64,000 bases of DNA from Waddliaceae bacterium. GTDB taxonomy: Bacteria > Chlamydiota > Chlamydiia > Chlamydiales > Waddliaceae. Below, piece after piece: positions 17,387-61,541 of the stretch. Both the position numbers and the translations under genes were made by a program. The notes below the pieces were generated by a model. The model was not told the origin of the DNA. It saw only the letters and a program-made list of their open reading frames with translations, and ran no database searches. The stretch is taken from the NCBI GenBank assembly GCA_963724325.1, contig CAVRUH010000001.1, positions 960,001 through 1,024,000 on the forward strand, given 5' to 3'. Within the stretch, counting starts at the first letter, position 1. Each line of letters starts with the position of its first letter.

Positions 17387-17557
17387 CATCCTTCATATCC
17401 GATACGCATCAACCTAAAATAGCTTTTACCACAGAGAACACGAGAGAGCACAAGAGAGATCATTGAGTGTAAAATAGTTCTCTCTGCTACCTCTGTTTTC
17501 TCGGTGAACTCTGTGTTAGAAATTTTTTAAGTTGATGCTTATGAGATATGAAGGATG
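17387..17557. repeat. Nested inverted-repeat element (repeat family modules A and B)
   Basis: catccttcatatc…gatatgaaggatg encloses acgcatcaacctaaaa…ttttaagttgatgc and accacagagaacac…ctctgtg. Confidence 0.75.
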
Positions 17558-17610
17558 GGATTGTAAGGAATTTAATGAAATTACTGTTATTTTCTGCGCC
17601 CGTGAAGTAT

Positions 17611-18681
17611 TTAGAGCTTCGAAAATCTCCACATCACTGTCCCGTAGATGAGTCCGAAGGGAGGCCAGATGGCCCAGGCGGGCTCTAGTACTTGCCTTTT
17701 CCCAAGCACTGTTGCAGCGTCCAAAATAAGAAAAAACGCCACGAATCCGAAAATGCTAAAAGCATAAATGAAAAATATTGGGATATTTCGGCTAAACCTA
17801 ACACAGAAAGGAGCCGGTGCAAGTACAGCCAGCAGACAAATCCAAGGCATAGCCATTTTATGGTAAAATGTGGAAGCGACTTGAGCCTCCTTTTCACTCA
17901 AGGAGTCATTGTGAGAGGGGAACTTCTTCCATAGGCTCGAAATGGAAAACTCTTCCACAGGAGTTATGGTATCTAGCAGTGTTTTCTTATTGAATCGAAT
18001 CTCAGGAAATTCTCTCGATTCAAAAGTTTCCTTCTGAACGAAATCGCCAGCATCATTGCGAACCAAATGGACGACGTTTTTTCCCATTGGAACCGATATT
18101 CCCAGGTAGAGGCGTTGAATTTTGTAAATATCCTTGGAAGAGCGAATCCAATAGGTATCAAAAAAATATTCATGGGCAGTGTCATATTTTTGAAAAAGCA
18201 CAGTCGATTCGTCTTCCAGCACGACATGGTTGACTTGCATGTTTTTGACCTGTTTTTTCTTCGACAAAGCATGTCTGTCTGCCATATGACGAAGCTCTTG
18301 CAACGCACTAGGTATGAAGTATTCAGTGTTCGCATACAAAAGAACTGTTCCAAGAAGCCCAATTAAAATAAAGGGCCGTAGCAGGGTTTTAAGCTTCATT
18401 CCACTTGCCATCATCGCAACCAATTCGGAATGGGCATTTAAATTATATAGTGTCCTTATTGTCCCTAACAAAATGGCAAATGGCAATAGAACATCAAGTC
18501 TCTGAACGAATTCACACATGTAATATAAGCTGAGTTCTATCCACTTGAGGTGAGAATGCTGATAATGCGTCCCGCTCGAATGGCTGGAGTAATCAATCAA
18601 AACATACAACCCGTAGAAGCATCCAAGAAACATTACTATAGTCTTTACTGTTTCGCGAATAAAATATCTTTCCCAAATCAT
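17611..18681 (-). CDS. lptG: LPS export ABC permease LptG-like
   Basis: YjgP/YjgQ pattern (SELVAMMASGM..LLRP); second gene of the pair. Confidence 0.75.
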   Translation of the reverse strand: MIWERYFIRETVKTIVMFLGCFYGLYVLIDYSSHSSGTHYQHSHLKWIELSLYYMCEFVQRLDVLLPFAILLGTIRTLYNLNAHSELVAMMASGMKLKTLLRPFILIGLLGTVLLYANTEYFIPSALQELRHMADRHALSKKKQVKNMQVNHVVLEDESTVLFQKYDTAHEYFFDTYWIRSSKDIYKIQRLYLGISVPMGKNVVHLVRNDAGDFVQKETFESREFPEIRFNKKTLLDTITPVEEFSISSLWKKFPSHNDSLSEKEAQVASTFYHKMAMPWICLLAVLAPAPFCVRFSRNIPIFFIYAFSIFGFVAFFLILDAATVLGKRQVLEPAWAIWPPFGLIYGTVMWRFSKL

Positions 18682-59054: not shown

Positions 59055-61370
59055 ATGAATGATAATAAAGTTGTAATGGAATACTCTCCAAATTTTCAAG
59101 ATGATTACTGTCAGAATAATAATCCTATAGAAATTGAGATTAAGGATATTAGTGCCGATTACTTAGGTCGGCGCATGGCATTTATCAATACTGGACAGGT
59201 TAAGAAATCTGTTGAAGTTGTTGTTGCTGAGCAGCTGCCAAGCATACCGACGCGCATTGCAAGTTTCATCAGAAATTTCACAGATTATTTCGTTTGGCCC
59301 TCAAAACCTGAGATGGGCGAGCGGCAGAAAGCTATGCGTGAGATTTCACTTAAGAGTGTGAAAGTGGGATGTGAAGCATCGTTTTTCTCAATTACTGATG
59401 GCGGGCTGCCAGGTCTTGACAAAACGGGAATGCAGACGATTTCAGGTGTGACTAACAAGATCGCGAGTTTCTTTACTGCCTATTACAAGGAGCCAAACCC
59501 CTTTATTAATCGTAAATCACCCAAAATTCATGAGCCTTCTCGAATGTGGATTGGGGCAAAATTAGAGGAATTGTATTCCGATGAAATAGAACTTCATATT
59601 CATACAGAAGCTCTTTGCGGGGTATTCTTTGACAGGTGTTTAGAGGATTTTTTTACACCAGAAAATTTTACAAATGCTCTGTGTGGCTTCATATTTAATT
59701 ATTCTGAAAATAAGAAGAATGTGAAATCTGAGTCGATCGATCCATCAATATATGCCAAAAAGCATCCTAACGAATGTGATGAATTAGGAGCTGCGATTTT
59801 TAGTTGTGTGGACACTCTTCGTAAAGCTTCTAATATGGGTATGCTAAAGAAGGGAATATTAGCAGCAGGAACATTTTTTGGAAGTAGTTTTAAGCGATCT
59901 GTTGGGGCTTTTATTTTTGCAACATTTGATGCGACTCTGAAGTCTGAGGGAAGTTCAATTCTTGATATGATGGAGATGTGGCTTAAAGAAATGGAAAAGC
60001 CTAAAGAAAAAGTGGATGAAAAAGGACTTCGAGAAAAGCTGCATAAAACTATTTTGAAAGATATGTCTCGGTTTGTAAAATATGCAATTGACCAAACTGA
60101 AAATGAAAATGAAAGTAAAAATATTAAAAAATTTGTAGAAACCACCATTGCAGAAATTGCTCCGATGATTGTGAATTTGGTCTGGGATAAAACGACAAAC
60201 CCCATCGCACAACTTCTTCTTTACGAAGTGCCTTCCTATTTCGTACGGCCTAATAAACCCAAAAGTGAAGATATAAAATCAATAAAACCATTATCATATG
60301 ATGGATTCCAAAAATTTGGGGCATTGCTTACAAATAGTCTCCAGGATTACCTCTTGACTCCTTGTCTTGGCCCTTCGATGTCGAAATGGGAACCGATTTT
60401 GATCTGTTTAATTAAAGAAGGAATCCGAAAAGGAATGGCTGCAATACCTATAGCCTCTTCTCCCAATGCTTCGCATGAAAACACTTTACAATTGGGTTAT
60501 CTCTTTGCTGCTTTCAATGCATTTCTTCAGAAAGCGATCAAAAATAATTACCATTTTTATATTAACAATGACAAAGATGCAGAGATTAGAACAAGAGCAA
60601 GACTTAAGGAAATTGAATTCATCGAGAGGCCGATGAAAATGTTCTTATTCGAGTTGATTCAGAAAAATTTTCGTGAAAAACGGATCCAAAGTGAAGGGAC
60701 AGATGTTCTATTGGGTTTGGTTAATACCTGTATAAAAATAATAGTGGATCCTGTCCTTATTACCAATTTAATTTTGAAAAATAAGTTGAGTAAACAAAAG
60801 TTTCCTGAGGTAAAAGTAGCAGGGGAGGATATCCCTGGTTATACAGCTGTCGGGCACGAAGCAGTACGGTTGCTGCGCACAATACTGGCTATAGGAAATA
60901 AAAATGATACTATGAGTAATCTGGATATATTGATTGCAGCAATAGCGAACACGATTTGTGAAGGAATTGGATCAAAATTAGCCCAGGGAATACGTGGAGC
61001 AGCGGCATCTAATGATTGTGCTTTTATCAATATTATTGAAAATATGTTGTGGGGCATGAATGAGGAAAAAAAATCAGAGGCCATTTTTTTTAAAGATTGG
61101 ATAGATGACAAAATGGACCTCCAAAGGGCTCTAAAAGACTGGATTGAGAATGAGCTCAAGCCATTTATTTTGTTAGCCATTAAGGATGTTCCAGGCATAT
61201 CATGGATGAGCGGTAAGTTGTTGACGCAAATTCCTATGCTGACTGAAAAGATGTTCAAAATATTGTGGGATGAAGATAATATTGCTATTCGAGTATTGAT
61301 TATTCAATATTTATTACCGATTTATATCCCTCAACTCAGAGATAAACTTTTGATCCAGAATAAGCCATAG
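59055..61370 (+). CDS. Large hypothetical protein (candidate effector)
   Basis: About 771-aa ORF from the ATG at 59055; the upstream extension overlaps the MFS gene and is unlikely. Confidence 0.75.
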   Translation: MNDNKVVMEYSPNFQDDYCQNNNPIEIEIKDISADYLGRRMAFINTGQVKKSVEVVVAEQLPSIPTRIASFIRNFTDYFVWPSKPEMGERQKAMREISLKSVKVGCEASFFSITDGGLPGLDKTGMQTISGVTNKIASFFTAYYKEPNPFINRKSPKIHEPSRMWIGAKLEELYSDEIELHIHTEALCGVFFDRCLEDFFTPENFTNALCGFIFNYSENKKNVKSESIDPSIYAKKHPNECDELGAAIFSCVDTLRKASNMGMLKKGILAAGTFFGSSFKRSVGAFIFATFDATLKSEGSSILDMMEMWLKEMEKPKEKVDEKGLREKLHKTILKDMSRFVKYAIDQTENENESKNIKKFVETTIAEIAPMIVNLVWDKTTNPIAQLLLYEVPSYFVRPNKPKSEDIKSIKPLSYDGFQKFGALLTNSLQDYLLTPCLGPSMSKWEPILICLIKEGIRKGMAAIPIASSPNASHENTLQLGYLFAAFNAFLQKAIKNNYHFYINNDKDAEIRTRARLKEIEFIERPMKMFLFELIQKNFREKRIQSEGTDVLLGLVNTCIKIIVDPVLITNLILKNKLSKQKFPEVKVAGEDIPGYTAVGHEAVRLLRTILAIGNKNDTMSNLDILIAAIANTICEGIGSKLAQGIRGAAASNDCAFINIIENMLWGMNEEKKSEAIFFKDWIDDKMDLQRALKDWIENELKPFILLAIKDVPGISWMSGKLLTQIPMLTEKMFKILWDEDNIAIRVLIIQYLLPIYIPQLRDKLLIQNKP

Positions 61371-61423
61371 AAGCACTCCTTAACTAACAAATCACGAAAC
61401 TATAAAACGCAGGCGGGAATCGA

Positions 61424-61541
61424 ATTTCAAAAAATATTTTCAACGCAAAGGAGCAAAAGGCGTTAGAGTAGAGACGGGCTAAACACCCGTCTCTACTCTA
61501 ACGCCTTTTGCTCCTTTGCGTTGAAAAAAGTTTTTTGAAAT
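61424..61541. repeat. Long palindrome (42-bp perfect arms, module C) with a central GTAG REP-like hairpin
   Basis: 61437-61478 vs 61486-61527; core gtagagacggg-ctaaaca-cccgtctctac. Confidence 0.92.

Follow-up and report, generated by a model that had tools for sequence, protein, structure and literature searches.

Dispersed hairpin modules in a Waddliaceae genome share their arms with GxxExxY gene cassettes and may be spread by a single-copy nuclease

What places the same few hairpins behind one gene after another in a bacterial chromosome? The question is raised by a 64-kb stretch of the genome of a Waddliaceae bacterium (hereafter the window; G000:C1:960001-1024000, where G000 is the genome studied, a 2.37-Mb assembly that is 84.6% complete, and C1 one of its contigs). 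The window holds intergenic hairpin modules of four kinds, A to D, that nest in or abut one another. An earlier note had taken them for mix-and-match parts of one unrecognised mobilising system, in which non-autonomous elements are moved in trans by a nuclease encoded elsewhere. We find that A-D are layers and not one system. On sequence comparison, we lean towards the modules being gene-less copies of the arms of cassettes that carry GxxExxY genes, likely spread by a single-copy nuclease, with MITEs (miniature inverted-repeat transposable elements) of the DDE type inserted in them or capturing them.

Four genome-wide families of intergenic hairpins

All four motifs were found in the window where the earlier note had read them, and the genome-wide repeat search it proposed revealed that each is a dispersed family. 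The arms in G000 number 246 for A, 59 for B, 39 for C and 24 for D, compared with 0, 3, 0 and 0 in a reversed-genome control. The A units are CAGGAT in 9-bp phase, and the core units of B, C and D are CACAGAG, CGCAAAG and CGCAGAG, respectively. DNA hairpin folding of four window elements gave z values of -4.1 to -17.3, with none of 200 shuffles as good in each case; no Rfam match at the gathering score was found in the 64-kb window. The gene sets at the start of C1 and in C3, and those of C6 and C11, are nearly duplicated, which suggests redundant contigs and a doubling of a few repeat counts.

Placement was scored against our own heuristic gene calls, on which all gap, in-gene and stop-codon counts are based. 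Arms rarely lie within called genes (5 A, 2 B, no C and 1 D across G000). The modules had been said always to follow a gene's 3' end; this is so at the six window loci, but genome-wide it is a bias only, with A occupying 39 of 327 convergent, 37 of 1,462 tandem and 5 of 324 divergent gaps. The mix-and-match pattern held in part. A and B share 25 gaps where 3.2 were expected, and C and D share 5 where 0.28 were expected, whereas the co-occurrence of A with C (3 vs 1.7 expected), A with D (3 vs 1.0, p=0.07) and B with C (2 vs 0.9) was not significant.

The module cores are arm types of GxxExxY cassettes

G000 encodes two full matches to the GxxExxY family (PF13366/TIGR04256) and one weak partial match in a 542-amino-acid (aa) frame. 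One full gene (C1:338310-338720) has a complete A hairpin on either side, and behind these hairpins there is a third, partial one. The other (C5:248221-248700) has a C arm upstream and a mere trace of an arm downstream. The proposed link between the modules and GxxExxY genes is thus supported. The nearest named homologues of the G000 protein are mostly from Chlamydiota, pointing to an environmental chlamydia as the probable host, and a search of viral contigs with one query returned no GxxExxY relative.

This arrangement extends well beyond G000. We analysed the flanks of 217 GxxExxY loci, from which repeated copies borne by insertion sequences (ISs) and one duplicate locus had been removed beforehand; 201 have a full-length domain, and 168 were left after removal of identical proteins and short flanks. 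Inverted flank similarity (score of at least 30) was found at 135 of the 168, compared with 34 in direct orientation and 1 with shuffled flanks. In a quick tree, in which 76 of 165 inner branches lack resolution, the A-type clade (77 loci; Shimodaira-Hasegawa-like approximate likelihood ratio test (SH-aLRT) support of 97) carries GAT-type arms at 69 loci and no called arm at 8. The other 91 loci divide into those with CGC-type (35), CAC-type (25) or GAT-type (2) arms and those with none called (29). At the level of sequence, these comparisons establish the A-D cores as arm types of GxxExxY cassettes and the A type as going with one protein clade, an association rather than independent co-evolution, as the loci were drawn by protein queries from both clades and many are kin.

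A-type copy number is associated with the gene, a correlation that the earlier note had proposed to check. In a set of 151 genomes, all 15 with at least ten A-type 15-mers have a GxxExxY match, as do 30 of the other 136; an A-clade gene is among the matches listed in 11 of the 15 and 10 of the 136. The A-rich genomes that carry a GxxExxY gene span several families.

Other arrangements were also observed. At L064 (G018:C5:33968-38400), GxxExxY cassettes with CGCAAAG arms stand head to tail in a tandem of about three units, and at L008 (G001) and L022 (G023) the genes lie inside long inverted repeats of other types, in which no short phased units were called.

Module A is mobile

Module A is a real, mobile element. 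We compared G000 with 1.6 of the 3.2 Mb of G001, a genome of the same genus with a median protein identity of 69%. Among 358 adjacent gene pairs conserved between the two, A is present in G000 only at 10, in G001 only at 8 and in both at none, although at one of the eight G001-only sites G000 has a degenerate A, which escaped the threshold. Because none of the 18 A-occupied orthologous gaps is common to the two genomes, A is not a conserved terminator, and the earlier idea of mobile, non-autonomous elements is borne out. Five orthologous gaps hold different repeat families, and at three gaps with A in G001 there is almost no gap in G000. In G000 as a whole, about 80 separate gaps are occupied by A. 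The two genomes have their A-clade genes, which are 71% identical, at different loci. In G001, a cassette that has CAC-type arms and lacks IS ends follows a stop codon at a distance of 6 nt, and this site is empty in G000. Sequencing runs sought for strain-level empty sites held at most 11% of words in the best case, in short, shallow contigs only.

The window illustrates the forms that A takes. At 24.9 kb, an outward-facing element (24906-25039) consists of a left arm (24917, minus strand), a spacer and a right arm (25010); before it, 55 nt past the ftsH stop (24792), lies a degenerate A arm with a linker as in other A/B composites (24848-24905). At 32.4 kb, five plus-strand and four minus-strand arms (32411-32913) form a tandem array of hairpins with a 121-bp period (32400-32935), including four end-to-end junctions with 16 nt between terminal hexamers. 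At 54.5 kb, an array between convergent genes (54464-54882) has one left arm (54501, minus strand) and four right arms (54578-54860, plus strand) with an 88-bp period.

No shared outer tip was found among the simple A elements of G000, and neither a fixed offset nor a target duplication of fixed length was found in 58 G001 A elements; for duplication analysis the G000 set is confounded by arrays. The G001 elements are conserved over their outer 7 nt and, weakly, over the next 6-20 nt. In G000, A arms also occur joined end to end: at 26 of 49 junctions (about 16 loci), the terminal hexamers are separated by 16 nt that vary in sequence.

Module B, an IS231-type MITE with a preference for A arms

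By its ends and flanks, module B is an IS231-type (IS4) MITE that lands in A arms, where it prefers an 11-bp site. Complete copies are about 143 bp long and their tip consensus fits the IS231-subgroup pattern CAT-7-AA-2-TAA; Table 1 of PMC2266710 gives CAT-------AA--TAA ends and 10-12-bp target repeats for this subgroup. Of 24 paired copies, 12 have direct repeats of 10-11 bp (at most two mismatches), 6 have inverted flanks and 6 have neither; a cross-pair control gave 84 of 552 (15%), a figure inflated by the many copies that use the same A site. B tips abut the A-arm 11-mer in 45 of 75 cases, compared with 1.6% of random intergenic sites. IS231A targets GGG-N5-CCC. With ends of the IS231 subgroup and target duplications of 10-11 bp, the spread of B is explained by an ordinary DDE transposase of the IS4 family; one mobilising system for all modules is not supported.

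Inside B lies a hairpin of the CACAGAG type, which resembles the arms found in the other GxxExxY clade. The B tip occurs in 18 of 150 relatives, 12 of them with five or more matches, and the elements it bounds there have other interiors but often the same A-type flank and clean 11-bp repeats (L157, L164-L167). In one relative (G030:C144, L148), B-type tips enclose a 467-aa IS4 transposase (NF033592, 213 bits with a cut-off of 115; YREK at 328), whose best plasmid matches are Bacillus IS4/IS231 elements at 28-29%; the 11-bp flanks of this element differ at three positions. No cognate IS4 transposase gene was found in G000, at its 84.6% completeness.

In the window, B occurs at 17428, 25100, 32976 and 54923. 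The first is a complete 143-bp MITE (17401-17543) with IS231-type tips and a CACAGAG-type hairpin core, which lies 67 nt downstream of an lptF/G-family gene. It is one of the six copies with inverted flanks, having a 14-nt A-arm fragment on its left (17387-17400) and an inverted copy of it on its right (17544-17557; one mismatch in 11). The others are a right half with an IS231-type tip at its end (25075-25140), followed by an A-type 11-mer (25141-25151), a degenerate right half with a linker (32940-33014) and a truncated right half (54895-54951).

Modules C and D and other elements tied to the hairpins

C and D have outer tips of their own. No target duplication was found in 6 C and 8 D pairs, save one 3-bp match, and no source IS for these tips was found in 150 relatives or in plasmids; a set of 400 genomes gave scattered single matches with two mismatches only. 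In the window, C is present as a left half with outer tip and CGCAAAG arm (32276-32345, plus strand; arm at 32306) and as a complete hairpin with outer tips (61412-61545; arms at 61441 and 61502), directly preceded by a degenerate left piece of D at about 61.39 kb (61379-61411, plus strand). A D hairpin occupies 53222-53323 (arms at 53229 and 53296). D tips hold the stop codon of the adjoining called gene in 12 of 28 cases, and metG in the window is one of these: the tip at 53222-53230 contains its last codons and stop (53228-53230), and metG ends about ten residues beyond its G001 orthologue.

Further mobile elements are found in or around the hairpins. A MITE that carries repeats of another family, E, and has tips that we take to be of the IS66 type lies in A arms, with 8-bp repeats in two of six pairs (C1:419658, C11:25204); no IS66 transposase for it was found in G000. 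An element encoding a large serine recombinase (PF00239, PF07508, PF13408) has seven copies in G000, among them C1:24262-29496, C1:441228-442829, C7:112392-114038, C7:230228-231832 and C7:257293-258945, and A arms flank the copies whose ends were inspected. Two IS1634 copies, C1:474886-476538 and C1:887676-889606, lie at the centre of a B-like hairpin and of a C hairpin.

The earlier note had also looked to RAYT (repetitive extragenic palindrome (REP)-associated tyrosine transposase) and four-helix-bundle genes as possible neighbours of the modules; in G000, these adjoin families E and F instead. The RAYT-like Y1 gene (C5:207478-207774), below the NF047646 cut-off on the part scanned, adjoins the tandem REP-like family E (156 arms). 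The four-helix-bundle gene (C1:543016-543225, TIGR02436), beside family F, is preceded by ATGGAC units in 9-bp phase, which also occur in gene-less hairpins (32 arms), with arrays at C1:587011, C1:593399, C5:229197 and C5:331950. These hairpins and their gene are possibly a parallel system with another protein.

GxxExxY genes multiply as passengers and encode a predicted nuclease

Some genomes hold many GxxExxY genes, with 50 PF13366 matches in G007 and 60 in G018. Self-transposition as the source of about 30 identical copies in G007 was considered and rejected, as the copies lie inside IS630: 20 of the 21 examined have the same IS630 end, and the remaining one is cut by a contig end. In G018 (those examined), G113 (12 copies) and G092 (7 copies), the genes lie inside IS5-family elements, which are IS5/IS903-like in the latter two. 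Multiplication as a passenger only, in the cases seen, argues against an autonomous IS and fits a RAYT-like single-copy enzyme. The passenger state also shows how an IS231 could have acquired the B core. Cassette-free relatives of the GxxExxY-bearing IS630 and IS5 are only 66-75% identical, which makes capture of a cassette by an IS and insertion of a cassette into an IS indistinguishable.

The G000 protein scores above the cut-off of the GxxExxY/PDDEXK_3 hidden Markov model and has the GxxExxY, D and ExK motifs. A structure model built with 27 sequences (predicted local distance difference test score of 91) has a PD-(D/E)XK fold with a QxxxY motif. No variation is seen at G28, G30, E33, Y36, D72, K84 and Y100, and hardly any at E82 and Q96 (E82-x-K84, Q96xxxY100). 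The best Foldseek matches were Cas4 SSO0001 (E 6e-5) and lambda-type exonucleases, and VIA-align placed BpuSI, SSO0001 and 3ijm level (Z 8.1-8.3, root-mean-square deviation 3.2-4.3, about 100 residues aligned). The GxxExxY protein is much shorter than SSO0001 (135 vs about 203 aa). The ESM Atlas returned PDDEXK_3 clusters only. Sharing a fold does not show a function.

How the modules may have spread

The best reading, which we think somewhat probable, is a REPIN/RAYT-like system (REPINs being REP doublets forming hairpins) that would be driven by a single-copy RecB/Cas4-like nuclease and parasitised by DDE MITEs. The nuclease would bind the phased units and cleave the hairpin or cruciform close to its outer ends. 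Host repair would then join or copy what is released, either into other hairpins or into A/T-rich DNA that directly follows stop codons. Insertion by host repair would leave no duplication of fixed length, and the end-to-end A junctions with their constant 16-nt gap may be circle or dimer junctions of the nuclease process. B, with its CACAGAG core as cargo, would owe its movement to an IS4 transposase acting in trans, which the assembly now lacks; the IS66-tipped MITE and the serine-recombinase element also land in A. Nesting and then tandem amplification would give the mix-and-match look. We hold more tentatively, as possible but short of probable, the wider proposal that GxxExxY proteins mobilise a REPIN-like class of elements that is undescribed and crosses phyla, each protein being a minimal RecB/Cas4-like PD-(D/E)XK nuclease that takes the place of DDE, HUH, serine or tyrosine chemistry, with each clade reading its own phased repeat and with the hairpins serving as shared landing sites for IS231-type, IS66-type and serine-recombinase elements.

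Several observations weigh against a mobilising nuclease. The CAC and CGC arm types are not sorted by clade (20 changes each), labels shared among kin mean that the tree and genome tallies overstate independence, and 4 of the 15 A-rich genomes have no A-clade gene among the matches listed. The G000 assembly has no B-type GxxExxY gene. The compared half of G001 has no end-to-end A junctions against 58 outward elements. No remnants of gene or leader that would show an origin by internal deletion were found in the G000 A copies. The weak outer extension in G001, 13-27 nt in all, could be a decayed IS end, and every multi-copy GxxExxY gene examined is a passenger in IS630 or IS5. Finally, the fold Z of about 8 is near the background of which the tool warns, and a lone PD-(D/E)XK domain is not known to carry out strand transfer.

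Some of these observations suit an account that makes every module, A among them, an ordinary DDE-type MITE or the cargo of one, and in which the GxxExxY cassette is carried passively and its arms serve as operators or terminators. Module B is a MITE of this kind, outer tips are defined for C and D, the multi-copy genes ride in ISs, and the A ends of G001 have their weak extension. We nevertheless consider this account unlikely: A lacks a shared tip in G000, the 58 G001 copies show no fixed duplication, a GxxExxY gene is present in all A-rich genomes across several families, and the gene-bearing G001 cassette without IS ends lies at a site empty in G000. Less likely still is a spread of A that the host alone brings about through template switching, gene conversion and recombination between hairpins, with the nuclease only binding or nicking its own arms, for example in autoregulation or addiction. 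About 80 separate gaps, none common to G001, are occupied, and the junction gap keeps to 16 nt across many different sequences, which points to a defined cut, even though tandem arrays, inverted flank copies at 6 of 24 B and flank-plus-end duplications indicate much host-type rearrangement.

Two further explanations fare worse. That the RAYT-like Y1 transposase moves all hairpins is very improbable, because its gene is flanked by family E and not by A-D, and A and E share gaps at chance (2 vs 3.0 expected); sharing between B and E was not significant either. In its favour, the gene is present in G000, and nesting of REPINs is described in the available part of PMC3116915. We give least credence to a reading of the modules as terminators or regulatory sites that are conserved at orthologous positions. 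They form strong hairpins, are enriched between convergent genes and, at 1 of the 18 sites, have a degenerate counterpart in G000, but at the search threshold no site is shared, the repeat families differ between the two genomes in several orthologous gaps, and in some cases one genome has no gap at all. Modules may act as terminators once inserted.

Relation to known systems

As in the REPIN/RAYT systems set out in the available parts of PMC3116915 and PMC5581495, there are many intergenic palindromic doublets with tandem arrays and nesting, and each repeat type adjoins a distinct single-copy enzyme gene. Module A consists of abundant extragenic inverted doublets (246 arms, 5 of them in called genes), and G000 and G001 have one A-clade gene each. 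The differences are that A flanks a predicted PD-(D/E)XK (PF13366) gene and not an HUH Y1 transposase, that the arms are arrays of short phased units, and that the GxxExxY gene sits at different loci in congeneric genomes and has often been picked up by ISs.

For B, the parallel is with the non-autonomous mobile insertion cassettes MIC231 of IS231 (IS4), the trans-mobilisation of which is described in the available parts of PMC2266710 and PMC6199540. B has the CAT-7-AA-2-TAA ends and 10-11-bp duplications of this group, but it differs in its chlamydial host, its length of 143 bp, its GxxExxY-type hairpin cargo and its preference for A arms; in 2008 the IS231 subgroup was found almost only in Bacillus cereus sensu lato, according to the same part of PMC2266710. 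ISs that target REP sequences likewise use a dispersed palindrome as a landing site (PMC1525189, available part), whereas the landing site here is a GxxExxY arm, used by at least three unrelated elements. The protein itself belongs to PDDEXK_3/GxxExxY (PF13366, TIGR04256) by family membership and by its PD-(D/E)XK fold with QxxxY. In the available part of PMC3424549, the function of PF13366 is listed as 'Unknown' and flanking repeats go unmentioned; in that of 10.1101/2021.01.26.428298, the mention of GxxExxY is incidental. Our literature search, which had supplements of MITE/REP surveys and most subscription papers outside its reach, found no description of repeats tied to GxxExxY genes. We regard the modules as a further form of the REPIN/RAYT and MITE theme, in which the candidate enzyme is undescribed and on which known IS biology is superimposed.

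Other features of the window

The window also contains two multi-copy IS481/IS3-like elements (10208-12037 and 45482-46955), which fall below the NF033577 cut-off. Their copies have flanking direct repeats that appear unusually long, about 13-15 bp as read by eye, and the first element also encodes a 103-aa open reading frame with no Pfam match. Beside it lies a 300-bp duplicate at the 3' end of an aconitase C-terminal gene (7513-7812 and 12094-12393). Two identical, adjacent IS30 transposase genes, 1,402 bp apart, occupy 42905-45356. An Rpn/YhgA-like PDDEXK_2 gene (8056-8958) has no A-D modules flanking it, and an 18-bp tandem repeat (27050-27121) is kin to a dispersed family that flanks IS701-like elements (C1:211119, C1:956618).

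Implications

The IS231-type layer alone is ordinary. Taken together with the other elements, it indicates that one dispersed hairpin can steer three unrelated transposable elements to harmless intergenic sites. For the enzyme, G000 offers a concrete test, with one gene, its own arms, the arms of a second clade as a specificity control, and a pair of filled and empty sites. If the proposed role is true, it would provide a function and a natural DNA substrate for a widespread nuclease family listed as unknown, and it might add a new DNA-moving chemistry, carried out by a protein of 135 residues.

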